64,000 bases of DNA, from positions 768,001 to 832,000 of the forward strand of contig OY762911.1 of assembly GCA_963666565.1 (NCBI GenBank), in the 5' to 3' direction. This stretch comes from Thermoanaerobaculia bacterium. Lineage in GTDB: Bacteria; Acidobacteriota; Thermoanaerobaculia; Multivoradales; Multivoraceae. The notes beneath the pieces are model-generated. The model saw nothing but the letters and a program-made list of their open reading frames with translations, was not told the origin of the DNA and did no database searches. Numbering within the stretch: position 1 is the first letter of the stretch; each line of letters opens with the position of its first letter. This document shows positions 860-47,711 of this stretch, piece by piece. Position numbers and translations under genes: made by a program.

Positions 860-3610
860 TTACGGCGCCGCGCAGGCGAACGCCTTCTTGTCCTGCACCG
901 GCAGGAAGCGGGTGCCGGCGGGGTTCTCGTACGTCTTCGCCTCGCCGGTCTCGGTGTCGGTGACGGTCATCGTCACGCCGACGTCCGTCAGGCCGGCGGC
1001 GAACACCCAGCGGTGGCCGTTCAGCGCGCAGCCGTCCAGCACCTTCAGGACCATCTCCACGTTGCTCGGCTCGAAGAACCAGTAGAGCCCCGTGTCTCCG
1101 GTCAGCGGCCAGGAGACCGCGTCGCCCGTCTCACCGTCCGGTTTCGCCCAGGAGGCGCGGACGGCGTAGCGGCCGTTCTCGAGGCACAGCGTCCGGTCGT
1201 CCGGCTCGCACTCGCCGGCGTCCGAGGCCGCGACTGCCCGGAACGGCGGCGGCGCCTCGGACGGCAGCTCGAGCGCGACGGCCGCGCGGTTCGTGCCGCC
1301 GCGCACGGCCTCCAGCTCGTCCGCCGCCAGCAGGTACCGGCTCTCGCCGTACAGGTTGGTTCCCTGCGGACAGACGGCGAACGTCTCCTGGTCCTGGACC
1401 GGCTGGAAGGCGGCCCCCGGCGGGTTGTAGTAGGTGGCGGCGACGCCGGTCTCCGAGTCGATCACCTTCATGACGACCTTCACGTCCGTCAGGCCGCCGG
1501 CGAACACCCAGTAGCGCTGGTTGAACGCGCAGCCGTCCAGGACCTTGACCAGGACCTCGACGTTCTCCGCGTTGAAGAACCAGACGAAGCCCGTGTCGTT
1601 CGTCAGCGGCACGGCCGAACCGGCGCCGCCGTCGACCGCCGCCTGCCACTGGAGTTCCACCCGGAAACGCCCCTGGTTCAGGCACACCGTGTCGCCGTCG
1701 GCCACGCACTCCCCGACCTCGGCGAGCGTCGTCGCGCCGACTTCGGGCGTGGGCGCCGAACTGCCGCGGTCGTTCACGGCGACGACCTGGTAGGCGCGGA
1801 AGGTGGCGGGCGGGATGTTCTCGATGACGATCGACGTCGTGTTCGCGGGCAAGGTCGCGATCCGCATGAACTCGCTGTCGACCATCCGCTCGTGGATCTC
1901 GAAGCCCGTCTCGTCGCCGGAACGGTCCTGCCAGCGGAGCTCCAGTTCCGTCTGGCCGATGGCGGTGACGGTCAGGTCGATCGGCGAGGCCGGGCCCACC
2001 GGGCCCACCGGGCCGGTCAGGGGATAGAGGACGCGCACCGCGTTGCGGTCGTCGCGGTTGAGCGCCGCGCCCCGGCCGTCGCCGTGGGCGAGGGCGCGCA
2101 TGATCGCCTCGTCGGTCAGCTCGTTGCACGAGCTGTTCGCCTCGTCGCCGCAGGAGTGGCCGATGCCGAGGACGTGGCCCAGTTCGTGGGCCATGATCTC
2201 CTCGTGGTTCCGGCGCGGGTTCGCGCTGCCGGCAAGCCACTCGCCGTAGCCGTCCTGGGTCGCGATGTTGGCCTCCACCAGTTCGTAGGCCTCCGTCCGG
2301 CGGCCTCCGGGGATCGGATGCGGGGGATTGGCGGCGTCGCAGTAGGCGTAGGCGATGGTGATGGCCAGGATGCCCCCGACCTCCGGATCGAACGAGCCCG
2401 GGATCTCGTCGGCCGGATCCTCGAAGCCGATCCTGTTCTCGCCGTCGGGTTGGAGCGTGAACTCCTCGTCCGTCAGACCGCTCCGGACCAGATGCACGCG
2501 GCTCCGCGGATCCCCGTTCCAGGCTCTCATGCCGGCAAGCACCTGCGACCTGCCCGCGCTTGGCGCTCCCGGCTGGCCGCCGGCCTGGACCACGAGATCC
2601 AGGCTGTCGCCGCGGTCGAAGTTGCGCCAGCGAAGGGGAGTGCCGGGTTGCTCGCAGCCGGCGCCCACGCGGAGCAGGTTGTACGGCGAGACGACCGCCG
2701 CGGGGTCCTCCCCCAAGTCCGTGGCGAAGTAGTCCGCCGGCTGCTCCCGGCCGGCCGCGCGGTCGGCGATCCAGCGCCGGAACGGCGCGGCGTGACGCGG
2801 CAGGCGCGCCAGGCGCCGGGCCTCGGCGTGGGGGTCGGCGGGCCGCGCATGAGGGCCGGAAGAGCCGCTCGCCCAGTGCGCCGGCGCCTCGCCATGGAGC
2901 GACGGCTCGCGCATGAGCAGGGTCCGGGCGCCCGACCGCACCTCGAAGAACATGCCGAGCGCGAGTTCCACGGTGCGGTAGACGCCCTCGACCGGATCGA
3001 GGAAGAGCAGCGCCCGGTCGCCCTCGACGAGGTCGGGCAGGCCCATGACCCGCGCCGCGATGCCGCCCGGGCCCATGCCGCCGGGCTGGCGGACGACGAT
3101 CGTGCCGCCGGGGACGAAGCCCTTGAGCACTTCCTCGACCTGGAACATGAAGTCGGTCGAGGGCAGGCCGTCGGCCGGCGAGGGCTCGGCGGCCAGGACT
3201 TCGCCGAAGACGATGACGGGCGAGCGGTCGACGAGGGCGGCGTCGGTGGGGAGGACGTAGACGAGGGCTTGGGCGGCGGAGGCGGCGAGGAGCAGCGCGG
3301 CGGCGGCCAGAAGAACCGACGGGCTTCGCCCGGCGAGTTGTTGCCGCCTTCGGCGGGAGCGGGTCGGAAGACCCGCGCACCCGGCGGCCAGAATGGACGG
3401 GCTTCGCCCGGCGAGTTGGTGCCGCCTTCGGCGGGGGCGGGTCGGAAGACCCGCGCACCCGGTGGTCAGAATGGACGGGCTTCGCCCGGCGGGTTGTTGC
3501 CGCCTTCGGCGGATGCGGGTCACAGGACCCGCGCACCCAGTGGGACCAGCGCACGCGGTGGGATCCGCGCGGCGGCAGAGAAGAATGGCGATGAACCGAT
3601 GCGTGGGCAT
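860..3610 (-). CDS. Secreted zinc metallopeptidase (matrixin/M10-like) with an FN3 domain and two C-terminal repeated domains
   Basis: HELGHVLGIGHS zinc motif with Met-turn (AIM); FN3-like LRWQDRSGDETGFEI; two copies of CL.xGR(F/Y).V...WFF...NVE..VKVLDGC..N..WVFA.GLTDV; start uncertain (3610 or 3673). Confidence 0.8.
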   Translation of the reverse strand: MPTHRFIAILLCRRADPTACAGPTGCAGPVTRIRRRRQQPAGRSPSILTTGCAGLPTRPRRRRHQLAGRSPSILAAGCAGLPTRSRRRRQQLAGRSPSVLLAAAALLLAASAAQALVYVLPTDAALVDRSPVIVFGEVLAAEPSPADGLPSTDFMFQVEEVLKGFVPGGTIVVRQPGGMGPGGIAARVMGLPDLVEGDRALLFLDPVEGVYRTVELALGMFFEVRSGARTLLMREPSLHGEAPAHWASGSSGPHARPADPHAEARRLARLPRHAAPFRRWIADRAAGREQPADYFATDLGEDPAAVVSPYNLLRVGAGCEQPGTPLRWRNFDRGDSLDLVVQAGGQPGAPSAGRSQVLAGMRAWNGDPRSRVHLVRSGLTDEEFTLQPDGENRIGFEDPADEIPGSFDPEVGGILAITIAYAYCDAANPPHPIPGGRRTEAYELVEANIATQDGYGEWLAGSANPRRNHEEIMAHELGHVLGIGHSCGDEANSSCNELTDEAIMRALAHGDGRGAALNRDDRNAVRVLYPLTGPVGPVGPASPIDLTVTAIGQTELELRWQDRSGDETGFEIHERMVDSEFMRIATLPANTTSIVIENIPPATFRAYQVVAVNDRGSSAPTPEVGATTLAEVGECVADGDTVCLNQGRFRVELQWQAAVDGGAGSAVPLTNDTGFVWFFNAENVEVLVKVLDGCAFNQRYWVFAGGLTDVKVVMKVIDSETGVAATYYNPPGAAFQPVQDQETFAVCPQGTNLYGESRYLLAADELEAVRGGTNRAAVALELPSEAPPPFRAVAASDAGECEPDDRTLCLENGRYAVRASWAKPDGETGDAVSWPLTGDTGLYWFFEPSNVEMVLKVLDGCALNGHRWVFAAGLTDVGVTMTVTDTETGEAKTYENPAGTRFLPVQDKKAFACAAP
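3318..3540. repeat. Three tandem ~78-bp units, each containing the REP-like palindrome, in frame in the peptidase N-terminus
   Basis: Units start at 3318, 3396 and 3474; they translate as [24 protein letters not shown]. Confidence 0.85.
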
Positions 3611-4450: not shown

Positions 4451-4668
4451 CACTGGGTGCGCGGGTCCCACTGGGTGCGCGGGTCTTCCGACCCGCATCC
4501 GGGCCACTGGGTGCGCGGGTCCTCTGACCCGCATCCGGGCCACTGGGTGCGCGGGTCCTCCGACCCGCATCCGCCCTGGGTGCGCGGGTCTTCCGACCCG
4601 CATCCGGGCTGGGCGCACGGCCCCCACTGGGTGCGCGGGTCCTCTGACCCGCATCCGCCGAAGGCGGC
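4451..4668. repeat. Tandem array of about six REP-like units
   Basis: CACTGGGTGCGCGGGTC(T/C)T(C/T)(C/T)GACCCGCATCCG repeated at ~36-bp period, ending in a CCGCCGAAGGCGG hairpin. Confidence 0.9.
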
Positions 4669-35390: not shown

Positions 35391-35466
35391 GCCCAGGTAG
35401 CTCAGTTGGTAGAGCACCTGACTGAAAATCAGGGTGTCGGTGGTTCGAATCCGCCCCTGGGCACCA
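35391..35466 (+). tRNA. tRNA-Phe(GAA)
   Basis: GCCCAGGTAGCTCAG...CCTGA-CTGAAAA-TCAGG...GGTTCGAATCC...CCA. Confidence 0.97.
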
Positions 35467-35569
35467 TCCGCGCAGGTTCCTTGCCGCCTGCGGCGGCAGC
35501 GGGTCAGAAGACCCGCGCATGTATGGTCCGCCCCGCTTGTGCAAGGGCACTTTCCGGAGTTCCGGCGAG

Positions 35570-35780
35570 AGAGGTGTCGTTGCTTGCATGTATTCGGCCT
35601 GTTGTTGGGCGTCTCGTGGTTTCGAGCTCCCTGGCCCCGATGGAATACGCGCGCGTCGTCTCTTCTGTACACCCAGACGGCCTGTTGAATGGCCCTGCGC
35701 GGGTTCAGGCTCTCGACGCGCCGGTCCGACCTGTTTCGCCATCGCTCCGTTGTGTCCTCGCAACGACTTGGTGGGGCAAT
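35570..35780 (-). ncRNA. Putative bridge/seek RNA of the IS1111-type element (boundaries approximate)
   Basis: Non-coding end downstream of the transposase contains ACCCGCGCA, CTGGGTG, ATTCCATCG and ATACATG (minus strand), matching the target and donor junctions. Confidence 0.75.
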
Positions 35781-35816
35781 CCTCCTTGGTTGATTCGATG
35801 TGGATCGAGCCGCCTG

Positions 35817-36875
35817 CTACGCGGCCCGAGAGACCTTCTGCCGAGACCCGGCGAGGCGGTCGTCGCGGTACAGCTCGCCGCGGCGAAGCACCGCCCAGGC
35901 GATGCGGCCCAGCTTGTTGGCCAGTGCCACCGTGGCGACGTTCGGCCCCCGGCGCCGCTTGACGTCGAGCGCCCAGCCCTTCAGCCGCGTTCGCTCGCCC
36001 TTCGCCGCCGTGCGCAGGACCGCCCGCGCACCGTGGATCAGGAGCGAGCGCAGGTAACGGTCGCCGCGCTTGCTGATCCCGCGCAGCACCGTGCGACCCC
36101 CGGTCGAGTCCTGACGCGGCACCAAGCCCATCCAGGCCGACATCTGACGACCGCTGCTGAAAGCCCAGCCGTTGCCCACCGCCGCCACGATCGCCGTCGC
36201 CACGATCGGACCGATGCCCGGAATCGACATCAGACGCTGGCAGTGAGGGTTCTCCTTCGACTCCCGCACCAGCATCGCGGTCAGGTCCTCGACCTCCTTG
36301 TGGACCTGCATCAGAGCCTCGTACTGCATCCACAGCAGCGCGCGAAACTGACCCGGCAGCTCGCGCTCCGCGTCGCTCGCGATGTCGGGCACCGCCCGCA
36401 TGACCACCGCCCGGCCCTGACGCAGCACGATCCCGTACTCGCCCAGGAATCCCCGCAACTGGTTCACCAACTGCGTGCGACGGCGAAGCGCCGCCTCCCG
36501 GCTCCGATGAACCTGCTGAAGAGCACGCTGCTCCTTCGTCTTGTACGGCACGAAACGCATCGTCGGACGGGACACCGCCTCGCAGATCGCCTCCGCGTCG
36601 TGGTAGTCGCTCTTGTTCGACTTCACGTAAGGCCGCACGAACTGAGGACTCATCATCCGCGCGTCGTGACCCAGAGCGCTCAGCTTCTCCACCCAGTAGT
36701 GCGCGCCGCAGCTCGCCTCCATGCCCACCAGGCACGGCTCGAGCTGCACCATCAACTCCATCAGCCCCGACGCCTTCACCTGACGCTGAAACACCACCGC
36801 GCCCGACGAGTCCATCGCGCACACCTGGAACAGGCGCTTGCCCAGATCGATACCGACTCGAGTAACCTTCTTCAT
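35817..36875 (-). CDS. IS110 family DEDD transposase/recombinase
   Basis: GIDLGK, GMEASCG, KSDYHDAEAI, SIPGIGPI, GLVPRQDSTGG and ALANKL. Confidence 0.96.
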   Translation of the reverse strand: MKKVTRVGIDLGKRLFQVCAMDSSGAVVFQRQVKASGLMELMVQLEPCLVGMEASCGAHYWVEKLSALGHDARMMSPQFVRPYVKSNKSDYHDAEAICEAVSRPTMRFVPYKTKEQRALQQVHRSREAALRRRTQLVNQLRGFLGEYGIVLRQGRAVVMRAVPDIASDAERELPGQFRALLWMQYEALMQVHKEVEDLTAMLVRESKENPHCQRLMSIPGIGPIVATAIVAAVGNGWAFSSGRQMSAWMGLVPRQDSTGGRTVLRGISKRGDRYLRSLLIHGARAVLRTAAKGERTRLKGWALDVKRRRGPNVATVALANKLGRIAWAVLRRGELYRDDRLAGSRQKVSRAA

Positions 36876-36959
36876 GGTCCGTCTCCTCCCTTGTTGGTTG
36901 GGAAAAACCCATTCTGGCCCTACAAGAGGCCGTAGAGGGCGGGGCGGACCATCCCATTA

Positions 36960-37127
36960 CCCAGTGCGGCGGCAGCGGGTCAGAAGACCCGCGCACCCAG
37001 TGCGACGGCAGCGGGTCAGAAGACCCGCGCACCCAGTGCGACGGATGCGGGCCAGAGGACCCCGCGCACCCAGGAGCGGGTCAGATGCGCACCCAGGAGC
37101 GGGTCGGGAGACCCGCGTACCCAGCCC
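36960..37127. repeat. Tandem REP-like array next to the IS
   Basis: GCGGGTCAGAAGACCCGCGCACCCAG and degenerate copies, about five. Confidence 0.88.
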
Positions 37128-37275
37128 GCTGCCCGGGGGCCGCCGGGAATCCGCAACATTTCCGCAGCAGCTTCCGAACTCCCCGGAACCGTGCCGAACG
37201 GCGGCAAGTAACGGCAAGCACGACAGTTAGCGCCGATCGGGCCCGACCGCTCCGCAACCGGCGGGATCTCTCGTC

Positions 37276-37305
37276 TTGACACGGCCTTCACGCGGCCTGT
37301 ACGTT
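37276..37305 (+). promoter_or_regulatory. Putative sigma70 promoter of the large ncRNA
   Basis: Consensus TTGACA (37276-37281), 18-nt spacer, TACGTT (37300-37305), ending 7 nt before the closing helix starts. Confidence 0.7.
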
Positions 37306-37312
37306 GTCTCGC

Positions 37313-38095
37313 GGATAGGGACTGTGACCAAGAATCGCATCCTGATCCACCGGTCCTGAGACGCGACCTTCGGACCGGAGCCCGAGAGGGGCGAAGTCAC
37401 GTTCGCGTGGTGGGCGCCCATCGACGGCGAAGGAAGGAAGGTCATGACTCGGAAGCCGGGCTCGGCGGCAGGAGCCGCCGGAAGCCGGAGACGCTGAGGC
37501 GCAAGCCGAAGAGAAACCGGATTCCAGCACGCTCCAGCCATCGAGTGGCTCCCGTGGCCGACAGCCTTCCCGGGAGCGGCGCCGAAGGGCGAAAGCCTGA
37601 CGGAGGCGCGACGGGGGAGGCGGCTTCAGGGAAACGGACGGCTGGAAGTTGCCCGGCAGCAAACGGAAGGCCGACTGCAGAACTGGAGCGCTTCGTCGGC
37701 GGACCCTACGGGGGCTTCGTCGTGAGACCCGACCAGTCGAGCGACGGAGTGCCCCGCAGGCGTCAGGCTGGCAGAAGCCAGGCTTCGGCGAGTCCCCGCG
37801 GCGGCGAGCCGCAGGGCGGCAGGCTCGGAGGCGCAAGCCGACGAGAAAGTCGTCCGACGGCAAAGGCGCGGCGGGCCGTTTTCGGCCGTCCCAGCCGAAA
37901 GGGCCGACCGTCTGAACGCAAGTTCGGCCGGAGAGCCCGGAAGGGGAAGGACGGGCGGAAGGGGATTCCGGCGGTGGTGCTCGCGCCCATGACCCAAGCC
38001 CGCCAAGCTGTAGAGGTCCAATCTGGTGCGAACGGGATGAGAGGCTGAGGTCGATTCGGGCGAAACTCCCGGAGCGGTCCCTATCCTCTTTTTTT
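37313..38095 (+). ncRNA. Candidate large structured non-coding RNA (~775 nt), family unassigned
   Basis: GGATAGGGACTG (37313-37324) pairs with CGGTCCCTATCC (38075-38086), followed by a T7 run; nested long-range helices; many GNRA/UNCG hairpins; no credible ORF. Confidence 0.75.
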
Positions 38096-38443
38096 GCCTG
38101 CACGGAACCTAGCACGACGCGACCGTAAGTGCAACCCCATCAGCAACTTGCAGGGGTCCCGCCCAGTACCTCGGCGACTGGCGGCCAGCGACGATCCGCC
38201 GCCGGCCGGCCAGCCGGGCTCGCCGCCGCTCCGACCCGGCGGCCTCCGTCCGCGGGTCCGCCGGCATCGCTGGAACGGAACGCTGTCACGAAACGGTCAG
38301 GCTATCGTCACGCACCGTGCAGAACTCTCCGTGCCAGTCTTCCCCTCCGCTCTCGAAGTCCCGGCGTCCGGCACCCAGGCGACGGCGACCGGACTTCCGG
38401 CACACGGAAAACCGGCCCCACGTAGCAGTCGAGATGCCAGCCA

Positions 38444-39427
38444 ATGCAGCGCGATAACGACGCGCCGTCGGACGCGGCGCCCCCGTCCGAAAGGGATCGC
38501 GACGCCAACGGCGAACCGCTGGGCCGCCTGCGTTTCGGCGAGTTCGAGTTCGACCCCGAGACTCTCGAACTGCGCGGCGACGCGAAGACCGTTCGGCTCC
38601 AGCCCCAGCCGGCCAGATTGCTTCTCCTTCTGATCGCCAACAAGGGGACGGTCGTCTCGCGCGACACCGTTCGCCGCCACCTCTGGCAGGACGAGATCCA
38701 CGTCGAGTTCGACCAGAGCATGAACTCCTGCGTCAAGCGCATTCGCGTCGCGCTCGGAGACAGCGCGGAAGCGCCGCTCTACATCGAGACCCTGCCGAGA
38801 CTCGGCTACCGGTTCCTCCAGCCCGTGACCGAGGTTCGTGACGACAGCCCGTTGCCCTCGGTCGAGCCGGCGCTACCCCGGTACTGGCCGCGCTCGCGAC
38901 GGGCGCCGTCCCTGCCCCTCGCCGCGGTGAGCGTGGCCATCGGGATCGTGTTGACGGTCCTGGTCTGGAACCTGCTCAACACGCGGTCCGGCGGCGCCGA
39001 CCAGCCGCCGCGCCAGGTGCTGGCGGTCCTGCCCTTCGCCGCCCTCGAGCACTGGCCCGGGGCGGAGTCCTTCCGTCAGGCGCTGGCCCAGGAGCTCATC
39101 ACCTCGCTCGCCCGGGAAGGCTCGCGAAGCGTCGCGGTCGTGGCCAGGGACGCAGCTCCCGAGCCGGAGACCAGCCCGCCGCCGCACCGCGTTCACGCCG
39201 ACTTCGTCCTCGACGGCCGCGTCCAGCACGAACAGGGTCGGCTCCGCGTCTGGGCGCACCTCCTGCTCGCGAAGGACGGAACGGTGCTGTGGACCGAGGC
39301 CTTCGACGGCGTGGAGGCCGAGATCCTCCTGTTCCAGGCCGAAGTGAGCGCCCGGATCGGCAACGCGGTCCTCGGCCGGCTGGAGCAACTCGCCGGTCAG
39401 GAGATCTCCCTGCAGCGCAGGGGCTGA
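38444..39427 (+). CDS. CadC-like winged-helix DNA-binding protein with a transmembrane segment and a TolB-N-like domain
   Basis: FGEFEFD, LQPQP..LL..L, VSRD, YIETLPRLGYRF; transmembrane segment; LAVLPF...VLDGRV...LRV..HL. Confidence 0.85.
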   Translation: MQRDNDAPSDAAPPSERDRDANGEPLGRLRFGEFEFDPETLELRGDAKTVRLQPQPARLLLLLIANKGTVVSRDTVRRHLWQDEIHVEFDQSMNSCVKRIRVALGDSAEAPLYIETLPRLGYRFLQPVTEVRDDSPLPSVEPALPRYWPRSRRAPSLPLAAVSVAIGIVLTVLVWNLLNTRSGGADQPPRQVLAVLPFAALEHWPGAESFRQALAQELITSLAREGSRSVAVVARDAAPEPETSPPPHRVHADFVLDGRVQHEQGRLRVWAHLLLAKDGTVLWTEAFDGVEAEILLFQAEVSARIGNAVLGRLEQLAGQEISLQRRG

Positions 39428-39431
39428 CGGC

Positions 39432-40124
39432 TCAGGGCCAGCGGCCCGGACGGCCGGGCAGATCGAGGGCGGCGTCCAGTTCCCGAAGGAAGCGCGACCG
39501 CGGGATCTCCTCCGCCCCGAGGCGCACCAGGTGCTCGGTGGCCTGCTGGCAGTCGACGAAGGCGTAGCCCCAGTCGCGGAGGCGGCGCACGAGATGGACC
39601 AGGGCGACCTTCGAGGCGTTCGACCGCCGGGAGAACATCGATTCGCCGAAGAAGGCGCCGCCGACGGCGACGCCGTAGAGACCCCCGGCCAGTTCGCCGC
39701 CGGCCAAGCACTCGACCGAGTGGGCGAAGCCCCGGCGGTGCAGGCGCTCGAACGCGTCGATCAGCGGTCCGGTGATCCAGGTGCCCGGCCGGCCCGGACG
39801 GTCCTCGGCGCAGGCCGACATGACCTCCCGGAAGCGCGCGTCCACCGTGACCTCGAAGCGGCCGCGCGCGAGCTCCTTGCGGAGGCTTCGCGACACGCGG
39901 AGCCGCTCCGGATAGAGGACGAGCCTCGGGTCGGGCGAGAACCACAGCATCGGACCGTCGACGCCGAGCAGCGGCCAGGGGAAGATCCCCGCCCGGTACG
40001 CGGCCAGCAGCCGCTCCGGTTCGAGGTCGCCGCCCACGGCCAGCAGGCCGCTCGGATCGGCCAGCTCCGGCGGCGGAAAGTCGAGGCGGCGTTCGTCGAG
40101 CAGGAAGGGGCCCCGCCGGTTCAT
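39432..40124 (-). CDS. aat: Leucyl/phenylalanyl-tRNA--protein transferase
   Basis: GLLAVGGDL, AY..GIFPW, WFSPDPR, GGLYG, FFGESMF and NASKVAL. Confidence 0.95.
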   Translation of the reverse strand: MNRRGPFLLDERRLDFPPPELADPSGLLAVGGDLEPERLLAAYRAGIFPWPLLGVDGPMLWFSPDPRLVLYPERLRVSRSLRKELARGRFEVTVDARFREVMSACAEDRPGRPGTWITGPLIDAFERLHRRGFAHSVECLAGGELAGGLYGVAVGGAFFGESMFSRRSNASKVALVHLVRRLRDWGYAFVDCQQATEHLVRLGAEEIPRSRFLRELDAALDLPGRPGRWP

Positions 40125-47569: not shown

Positions 47570-47711
47570 GCCGCCTTCGGCGGCAGCGGGTCGGAAGACC
47601 CGCGCACCCGGCGGGTCGGAAGACCCGCGCACCCGGCGGGTCGGAGGACCCGCGCACCCGGCGGGTCGGAAGACCCGCGCACCCAGCGGGTCGGAAGACC
47701 CGCGCACCCGG
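47570..47711. repeat. Tandem array of five 26-bp REP-like units
   Basis: GCGGGTCGGA(A/G)GACCCGCGCACCC(G/A) repeated head to tail, preceded by GCCGCCTTCGGCGGC. Confidence 0.92.

Follow-up and report, generated by a model that had tools for sequence, protein, structure and literature searches.

A predicted RNA gene in a conserved chromosomal locus

We analysed a stretch of 64,000 nucleotides (nt) from a Thermoanaerobaculia bacterium (GenBank assembly GCA_963666565.1, contig OY762911.1, positions 768,001 to 832,000), referred to below as the window. Positions 37313-38095 of its plus strand very probably constitute a free-standing gene for a large structured non-coding RNA (ncRNA), and with the same high confidence we regard this RNA as a real new family, not a member or variant of a known one. 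The gene order around it is conserved across the genus: a LolA-like gene (-), tRNA-Phe (+), the RNA (+), the gene for a 327-amino-acid Trans_reg_C protein (+), aat (-) and ychF (-). In the loci compared, about 190-260 nt separate tRNA-Phe from the RNA, and 250-450 nt separate the RNA from the Trans_reg_C gene; in this genome the latter distance is 349 nt, with both genes on the same strand. The predicted gene and its signals are listed here.

37313-38095 (+): large structured ncRNA gene, 783 nt up to the end of the T-run, both ends predicted
37276-37281 (+): -35 box TTGACA of the RNA's own putative promoter, read in the sequence and kept in homologues
37300-37305 (+): -10-like hexamer TACGTT, conserved, separated from the -35 box by 18 nt and from the start of the RNA by 7 nt
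37313-37325 (+): 5' strand of the 13-bp terminal helix P1 (columns 1-13 with 901-913 of alignment A2, described below)
38074-38086 (+): 3' strand of P1, taken from the alignment, with the T-run directly after it
38087-38095 (+): T-rich run TCTTTTTTT, presumed intrinsic termination site after P1, conserved among homologues

The RNA is predicted to begin with GGATAGGGACTG (37313-37324), whose complement CGGTCCCTATCC lies at 38075-38086 and is followed by TCTTTTTTT, including a T7 run at 38089-38095. TTGACA stands 36-37 nt before the first base of the RNA in 20 homologous loci compared, and the -35 box, the first 17 nt of the RNA, the terminal helix and the T-run are all conserved among homologues. 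The promoter is thus inferred from a perfect -35 box and its conservation. On the plus strand the region shows a purine excess (AT skew up to +0.31), with a G+C content of 67-71%. A preliminary description of this DNA, made from the sequence alone, had named the TTGACA-18-TACGTT arrangement, the end-to-end complement, the T7 run and six tetraloop hairpins, and each is found where it had been placed. Its proposal that the RNA has its own promoter and terminator stands as regards the perfect, conserved -35 box and the T-run, but the -10 hexamer is weak and neither signal is called by consensus scans.

Long open reading frames (ORFs) run along both strands, at 37407-38048 (+) and 37288-38115 (-), so that the region could in principle be a messenger RNA; being on the same strand and upstream of the regulator gene, it could also be a cis-acting leader of that gene. 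Both readings are scarcely credible. Neither ORF has a Pfam family, and variable columns are spread evenly over the three codon positions (131/132/127 for the plus-strand frame and 145/145/148 for the minus-strand one). The longest open frame switches strand and frame among homologues, and the sizes of the optional modules described below (~80-86 nt) are not multiples of three. Such long spurious ORFs arise because G+C is high. Judged from the aligned sequences the region is not coding, in agreement with the earlier view that it holds no credible ORF. A cis-acting leader is contradicted by four species in which 370-480 nt separate tRNA-Phe from the regulator gene and the RNA is missing, since the downstream gene persists there; moreover, the RNA ends in a conserved helix and a T-run.

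Relation to known RNA families

The whole window was scanned with cmscan against Rfam 15 (4227 families) at gathering scores, and only five tRNAs were found, with no match on the RNA. When 36800-38500 was searched with permissive filters (E<=10), the best five matches reached 15-21 bits (E 0.8-8.2) against cut-offs of 39-70 bits, and all of these sub-threshold matches were small unrelated families. In four homologous loci of different size classes, searched against Rfam 15 at E<=1, the flanking tRNA alone was matched. GOLLD, ROOL, OLE, HEARO, raiA and the other Rfam 15 families were therefore rejected, as their covariance models gave no match at or near the gathering score.

The genome's housekeeping RNAs are accounted for elsewhere. 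Its transfer-messenger RNA (tmRNA, RF00023) lies about 115 kb away at C1:920861-921207 with 130 bits, and ARAGORN finds no tmRNA in the window. A disguised tmRNA, RNase P RNA (RF00010), 6S RNA (RF00013) or signal recognition particle RNA (RF00169) was rejected as well, each being above cut-off elsewhere in the genome and none here. The preliminary description had argued that the RNA is not RNase P RNA, tmRNA or an intron, which agrees with these searches; its further remark that the RNA looks loosely tmRNA-like finds no support. None of the families that it had proposed for comparison (GOLLD, ROOL, OLE, HEARO, tmRNA, RNase P RNA and introns) matches the window or the four homologues, and its suggestion of a possible new family is borne out by the lack of an Rfam 15 match together with the covariation described next. 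No description of this RNA was found in the literature on ncRNAs of Acidobacteriota and Thermoanaerobaculia and on large RNAs, candidate lists in paper supplements being outside the scope of that search.

A conserved global fold

The plus strand of 37313-38095 folds with a minimum free energy of -421 kcal/mol, compared with -363.2 +/- 7.5 in 20 dinucleotide shuffles (z -7.73; no shuffle was as good). For the minus strand of the same region z was -2.58, and one of 20 shuffles was as good. Conservation of the fold was assessed on alignment A2, which holds 35 distinct sequences (this genome and 34 others) in 921 columns with a mean column identity of 73%. One further homologue (G055, locus L049) was left out, as its 5' motif was not found and its genome has masked bases; its core matches the covariance model R1 described below. 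As a control, every 3' partner was slid by 1-3 columns.

In the RNAalifold consensus of 233 pairs, 96.6% of 7652 cells can pair, against 33-44% in the slid controls. Both partners change in 39 pairs; the slid controls have 11-15 such pairs and the shuffled ones 15.2 +/- 2.3, and none of 500 shuffles reached 39. This score is inflated, the consensus having been derived from the very alignment on which it was scored. Because of this, a second test projected onto A2 a minimum-energy fold (266 pairs) computed from the RNA sequence of this genome by itself. Here 86.3% of cells pair (34-44% slid) and 47 pairs show compensatory changes, compared with 15-21 slid and 26.9 +/- 2.9 shuffled, with none of 500 shuffles reaching 47. 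The consensus pairs include 753 G-U cells but 134 A-C cells, and therefore the same pairs fare worse on the minus strand (88.5% against 96.6%), in line with the earlier observation that G-U pairs favour the plus strand. Brute-force searching for covarying helices was set aside, the high G+C and low diversity of this alignment making it too noisy.

The main elements of the fold lie in the window as follows.

37332-37344 (+): 5' strands of the nested long-range helices (GAATCG, CATCCTG), pairing with 38052-38057 and 38033-38039
38033-38057 (+): 3' strands of those nested helices
37455-37460 (+): 5' strand of the hub helix, which closes the central domain; its partner strand, 37966-37971, lies on the far side of the point where the optional modules enter
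37622-37773 (+): most conserved core, mean column identity 89% (alignment A3), basis of covariance model R1
37710-37755 (+): near-invariant long hairpin with the 7-nt loop CCGACCA, which is invariant in 35 sequences
38055-38073 (+): conserved 3' hairpin TTCGGG...CCCGGA just inside P1 (A2 882-887/895-900); all cells pair and two pairs vary on one side

Helices present in all the folds compared were taken as robust; they are given here by their columns in A2.

1-13/901-913: terminal 13-bp helix P1; all cells pair in 35 sequences, ten pairs invariant and three varying on one side
14-33/859-879: nested helices
150-155/697-702: hub helix; 99.5% of cells pair
156-170/247-261: helix with 3-4 compensatory pairs
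282-288/338-344: helix with 3 compensatory pairs
346-352/408-414: helix
358-367/394-402: helix with 5 compensatory pairs, in the most conserved core
373-377/384-388: helix with 2 compensatory pairs, in the most conserved core
436-482: near-invariant long hairpin; 97-100% of cells pair
882-900: 3' hairpin

The 60 pairs that the preliminary description had drawn for this one sequence were also carried over to the 35 homologues, where 83.3% of cells pair (27-46% slid) and ten pairs show compensatory changes (0-3 slid). The covariation it had called for is found in the consensus, in the single-sequence fold and in its own pairs. Three of its five long-range helices hold: the terminal helix pairs in 100% of cells and, being invariant, is silent on covariation; GAATCG/CGATTC pairs in 99.5%, varying solely from A-U to G-U, with RNAalifold preferring a slightly different register; and CATCCTG/CGGGATG pairs in 90.9%. 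The other two are not conserved. CACCGG/CTGGTG (37348-53/38023-28) pairs in 36% of cells and is peculiar to this genome, while GGTCATG/CATGACC reaches 69.8%, its 4-bp core GGTC/GACC being conserved but not the remainder. The tetraloop hairpins do better, with pairing in 97% of cells for the GAGA hairpin, 99-100% for the two GCAA hairpins, 93% for GAAA and 84% for TACG; the CTGAAC/GTTCGG stem falls to 58%, its inner three pairs covarying. The linkers are purine-rich, as had been described: purines make up 70% of the unpaired positions, mostly A, and 111 of the 156 adenines are unpaired, a pattern characteristic of folded RNAs.

The core contains at least five GNRA and two UNCG tetraloop hairpins, a sealed terminal helix and several long-range helices. 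Three loops of 6-7 nt (CCGGCA, CCGACCA and CCGCCAA) are invariant. A pairing of the loop CCGACCA with GGTCGG (A2 492-498), considered by eye, was rejected, as the partner varies without compensation.

This architecture invites the idea of a new ribozyme in which the conserved fold would build an active site and the three invariant loops could line a pocket. In its size, its long-range helices and its wealth of GNRA tetraloops, and in the strict invariance of its internal loops and junctions, the RNA does resemble large ribozymes, and such features are shared by RNase P, group I and group II introns and rRNA. However, nothing marks a substrate (there are no flanking exons, processing site or linked gene), no Rfam ribozyme family matches, and the RNA is missing in six of 41 other genus members without visible replacement. 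We consider a ribozyme unlikely.

Modular architecture

The RNA ranges from 617 to 866 nt across the family. The 35 sequences fall into length classes of 617-620 nt (n=10), 695-697 nt (n=2), 714 nt (n=1), 782-800 nt (n=8) and 860-866 nt (n=14). A conserved core of ~618 nt is combined with none to three optional GCAA-capped hairpin modules of ~80 nt (~80-90 nt), all of which enter at one hub (A2 columns 522-786). The combinations seen are none, A only, C only, A+B and A+B+C. Modules A and B occur in this genome.

37795-37875 (+): optional module A, GCAA-capped hairpin of ~80 nt (A2 523-604), missing in the ~618-nt forms
37876-37965 (+): optional module B, GCAA-capped hairpin of ~86-90 nt (A2 605-695)

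Module C (~81 nt) is present in the 860-nt forms and not in this genome. Module A resembles the core GCAA hairpin at 37463-37516 and forms an internal repeat with it; the 8-mer GCGCAAGC occurs twice in the RNA against 0.1 expected. The repeated GCAA-hairpin module of the preliminary description is recovered in this likeness of module A to the core hairpin around 37500, with its two copies of GCGCAAGC. In a tree of one protein, the neighbouring regulator (233 columns, midpoint root), short and long forms of the RNA are interleaved.

Two homologues depart from this scheme. G071 (L036), with an 800-nt RNA, carries a private 17-nt insertion at A2 228-244, in the loop region of the first GCAA-hairpin domain, so that the fold may accept additional sequence at a second site as well. 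The most divergent homologue, G065 (L067; 72% identity, 714 nt), has a variable region that can be only partly aligned to modules A-C; no tRNA-Phe is seen in the flank read there, and the RNA adjoins the LolA-like gene.

Distribution and losses

The RNA is present as a single copy in its own genome (4.79 Mb, one contig). Full-length homologues with 72-90% identity were found in 35 of 41 other species genomes of the genus; a 45.5-bit fragment in G059 was counted as no match. In a DNA search of 15 genomes from 12 other genera of the family, one 49-nt fragment of 44.6 bits (G042) was counted as none. Covariance model R1 was built from the best-conserved 150 positions (effective sequence number 0.86) and run with strict filters, so that weak relatives could be missed. 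Applied to 151 genomes of the order and 151 of the phylum, it detects the RNA in 16 of 19 genus members drawn and gives no match outside the genus, neither in a sample of 131 genomes that covers 62 further genera of the order nor in a sample of 150 other genomes of the phylum.

A scan of species-representative genomes for the first 17 nt of the RNA returned 44 loci, of which 31 have the core, one is cut by the end of the locus and 12 are chance matches from unrelated taxa. The true matches come from records titled Candidatus Multivorans, Candidatus Multivoraceae, Thermoanaerobaculia, Holophagales or Acidobacteria MAG. Two conserved motifs had no exact match in a viral contig collection, and one degenerate motif had three matches in metagenome contigs, all of them close relatives of known members. 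Among the genomes searched, the family thus appears to be confined to one genus of uncultivated Acidobacteriota (class Thermoanaerobaculia), not having been found in the others.

Six of the 41 other genus members lack the RNA. In G002, G010, G012 and G021, tRNA-Phe and the regulator gene stand 370-480 nt apart with no RNA between them, and R1 found nothing in G059 and G018. When G012 (L061) is compared with its relative G014 (L006), one 866-nt segment is missing while both flanks align; it extends from ~170 nt upstream of the RNA to its T-run and includes the whole RNA. A clean indel that ends at the T-run marks the RNA, as far as the two loci tell, as an independent unit. In the one-protein tree, G012 and G002 fall inside RNA-bearing groups (support of the G012 group 96/94), although the placement of G002 is weak (88/78; 82/35 with its nearest neighbour). 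Because both lie within RNA-bearing groups, the tree suggests at least two separate losses of the RNA. The absence from six species means that the RNA is not essential and that its function is dispensable or lineage-specific.

Neighbouring genes and repeats

The genes flanking the RNA in the window are given here.

35391-35466 (+): tRNA-Phe, upstream of the RNA
35817-36875 (-): IS110-family transposase gene (Pfam DEDD_Tnp_IS110, Transposase_20), spanning 35467-37145 together with its flanks
38444-39427 (+): Trans_reg_C gene (327 amino acids), carrying a single domain, an OmpR-type winged helix (residues 48-124), and lacking a receiver domain

The Trans_reg_C regulator has many paralogues in related genera (28-47% identity), mostly in longer frames of up to 990 amino acids. 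At ten paralogue loci from four other genera no tRNA was seen, and no orthologous site could be defined.

Among the loci compared, this genome alone has an IS110 gene and a cluster of palindromic repeats between tRNA-Phe and the RNA promoter. The IS110 gene is flanked by copies of the palindromic repeat, at 35499 and 36975, which fits an insertion of IS110 into the repeat cluster. The repeat resembles a repetitive extragenic palindromic (REP) element: GCGGGTC and GACCCGC, separated by five variable bases, occur 36 times in the 64-kb window against 0.06 expected, for instance at 830, 3359-3533, 4478-4652 and 47586-47704, often in regularly spaced arrays such as the five copies 25 nt apart at 47586-47704. 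Just upstream of the RNA promoter, a tandem array at 36959-37124 is built from this REP-like element, first with a 36-nt unit in 3.2 copies (92% match) and then with a 23-nt unit in 2.5 copies.

Given these neighbours, one might take the RNA for a passenger or relic of some mobile element or phage, or for an IS110 guide (bridge) RNA. It lies downstream of tRNA-Phe, the transposase gene is just upstream of it in this genome, and its presence or absence is polymorphic, in one comparison through a clean 866-nt indel. ROOL and GOLLD, for their part, have been described from phages and prophages, frequently close to tRNA islands (PMC12286853). Against this, no locus compared other than the window's own has the IS110 gene, the RNA occurs in 35 other genomes without IS110, and its strand is opposite to that of the transposase. 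The flanking genes (LolA-like, tRNA-Phe, the Trans_reg_C regulator, aat and ychF) are ordinary chromosomal genes in conserved order, the RNA is single-copy, and neither of its two conserved motifs is matched exactly in the viral contigs. The flanks read showed neither integrase nor phage genes, the borders of the 866-nt segment not having been searched for repeats or integrase. An IS110 bridge RNA is encoded within the element on the transposase strand and travels with it. That candidate was rejected on account of the opposite strand and of the RNA's occurrence in 35 genomes without IS110 at the locus. A mobile origin of either kind is very unlikely.

Occurrence in RNA libraries

Eighteen RNA runs from ten studies hold some of the sampled words of this stretch, and four of them were examined by contig alignment. 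One study contributed three metatranscriptome runs, in which 3901, 3183 and 3596 contigs (>=82% identity) lie on 37299-38186, with summed word depths of ~18,000 to 990,000 per 111-nt bin. The flank bins (36300-37298 and 38187-39600) have depth 0, which was not counted as evidence; the exceptions are 1.7-7.9 at 36966-37076 (a repeat), 16.1 at 38298-38408 and 27.5 at 39519-39600. A run of a second study (X5) yielded six contigs; one covers 37332-37675 with 400 nt, and in another, 37788 is linked to 37987 through 31 letters of other sequence, which corresponds to the module-less form of a relative. Short and long forms of the RNA therefore both occur in RNA libraries. The family's sequence is present in these libraries in a manner compatible with high abundance. 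Of the discrete plus-strand transcript of ~780 nt that the preliminary description expected, the presence of RNA-library contigs on the stretch is confirmed, strand and discreteness being beyond what contigs show.

Many contigs on the RNA could also speak for a regulator that sequesters a protein through repeated purine-rich sites, as 6S RNA does with RNA polymerase or CsrB with CsrA. The own promoter and terminator, the purine-rich unpaired linkers and the dispensability of the RNA would suit such a role. Yet CsrA (PF02599) was not found in this 97%-complete one-contig genome, and a normal 6S RNA gene is present elsewhere in it. Against 1000 dinucleotide shuffles there is no enrichment of the expected sites: GGA occurs 30 times against 27.5 +/- 3.5, GGAG 11 times against 12.0 and GGAGG three times against 4.1. 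A sponge for CsrA or for anti-Shine-Dalgarno sequences was rejected on these grounds, GGA, GGAG, GAGG, GGAGG and AGGA not being enriched and no CsrA gene being found. Finally, a complex global fold with long-range helices is conserved here, whereas sponge RNAs usually keep only short binding sites. We judge a protein-sequestering RNA improbable, to about the same degree as a ribozyme.

Discussion

We propose that the RNA would be transcribed from its own promoter, ending at the T-run directly after the 13-bp helix that joins both RNA ends, and that it would act in trans as a stable, compactly folded particle. This particle could serve proteins as a scaffold, or it could assemble with itself in the manner of OLE, ROOL and GOLLD. 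The RNA would work neither by antisense pairing, nor by cis-regulation, nor by coding. Taken as a whole, we consider this to be the likely explanation of the locus; the folded particle acting in trans, taken by itself, is held probable, if a little less firmly.

Several points weigh against this explanation. The absence of the RNA from six of 41 other genus members argues against a central housekeeping role. It resembles OLE, ROOL and GOLLD in size and style only. The inflation of the consensus score is only partly answered by the single-sequence fold. Variation is limited, as every homologue belongs to the one genus, and the terminal helix and the best-conserved hairpin are invariant and so show no covariation. 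There are two competing folds of the 5' domain (A2 columns 37-148) and likewise of the 3' region, and hence the secondary structure is only partly settled. As to the signals, a consensus promoter scan calls no sigma-70 site here because TACGTT fits TATAAT at only three of six positions, and a terminator scan does not call the T-run because the stem before it is long-range. As to expression, the four RNA runs examined were selected because they hold this stretch, contigs cannot show strand, ends or transcript level, and summed depth mixes strains and is a poor expression measure.

Two further proposals go beyond the folded particle. Within that reading, a homo-oligomer like OLE, ROOL or GOLLD would be rather doubtful. 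A broader idea is that the RNA might represent a fourth type of ornate giant bacterial RNA and form an RNA-only multimer or cage like ROOL and GOLLD, but chromosomal and lineage-specific, in uncultivated Acidobacteria, or alternatively be a new ribozyme; this is tentative and, while slightly easier to entertain, still unlikely. For a multimer it is tempting to picture the loops CCGGCA (with its CCGG palindrome), CCGACCA and CCGCCAA, together with the GCAA tetraloops, as bridges between subunits, while the none to three optional modules would decorate or tune assembly.

Whatever its activity, the family provides useful material. It offers a defined core, natural module-deletion variants (617-866 nt) and natural knock-outs in six sister species. 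The size variants ease the choice of minimal constructs for structural work, and the knock-outs allow a comparative search for partner genes. It also indicates that uncultivated lineages still hide large RNA genes missed by annotation pipelines.

Comparison with known RNAs

Bacterial ncRNAs longer than ~500 nt with an intricate conserved fold are very rare, and the known ones are ribozymes or OLE, ROOL and GOLLD. Regulatory RNAs of the 6S and CsrB type are also free-standing genes, abundant, trans-acting and not essential. The RNA described here is four to five times larger than 6S RNA, and the genome has a normal 6S gene elsewhere; it differs from the CsrB type in that no CsrA gene was found and GGA is not enriched.

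OLE (Ornate Large Extremophilic) lies in Firmicutes beside genes for its partner proteins. Here, in contrast, no conserved partner gene adjoins the RNA, its neighbours being unrelated housekeeping genes, and no Rfam match is obtained. The two have in common, as PMC12286853 describes OLE, a chromosomal location, a length of ~600 nt (the core forms here measure 617-620 nt), confinement to a lineage and a highly structured fold. OLE is described there as forming a dimer, and OLE, ROOL and GOLLD as having long been puzzling until they were recently found to build RNA-only assemblies (PMC12286853). These homo-oligomers are 8-mer or 14-mer cages, or a dimer.

ROOL (Rumen-Originating, Ornate, Large) resembles our RNA, as described in PMC12286853, in measuring several hundred nt, having a complex conserved fold and no known function or protein partner, and lying near tRNA genes. 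The same account gives ROOL and GOLLD as encoded by phages or prophages, often near tRNA islands. The Rfam 15 model of ROOL gives no match here, and whereas ROOL is phage- or prophage-encoded and widespread, the present RNA keeps a syntenic place on the chromosome, is limited to a single genus and was not found in the viral contigs searched. What lies upstream of it is one tRNA-Phe and not a tRNA island; its flanks are chromosomal, and its two motifs have no exact viral-contig match.

With GOLLD, many members of which exceed 800 nt according to PMC12286853, the RNA shares the size class (it reaches 866 nt), a combination of conserved and variable parts, many GNRA-type loops and proximity to tRNA genes. 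It differs in the lack of an Rfam match, in the taxa that carry it and in that no phage context is seen. In our family, moreover, the variable part consists of discrete optional hairpin modules that enter at one hub. As a new family unrelated to these RNAs, it would provide an independent case for the field of large RNAs.

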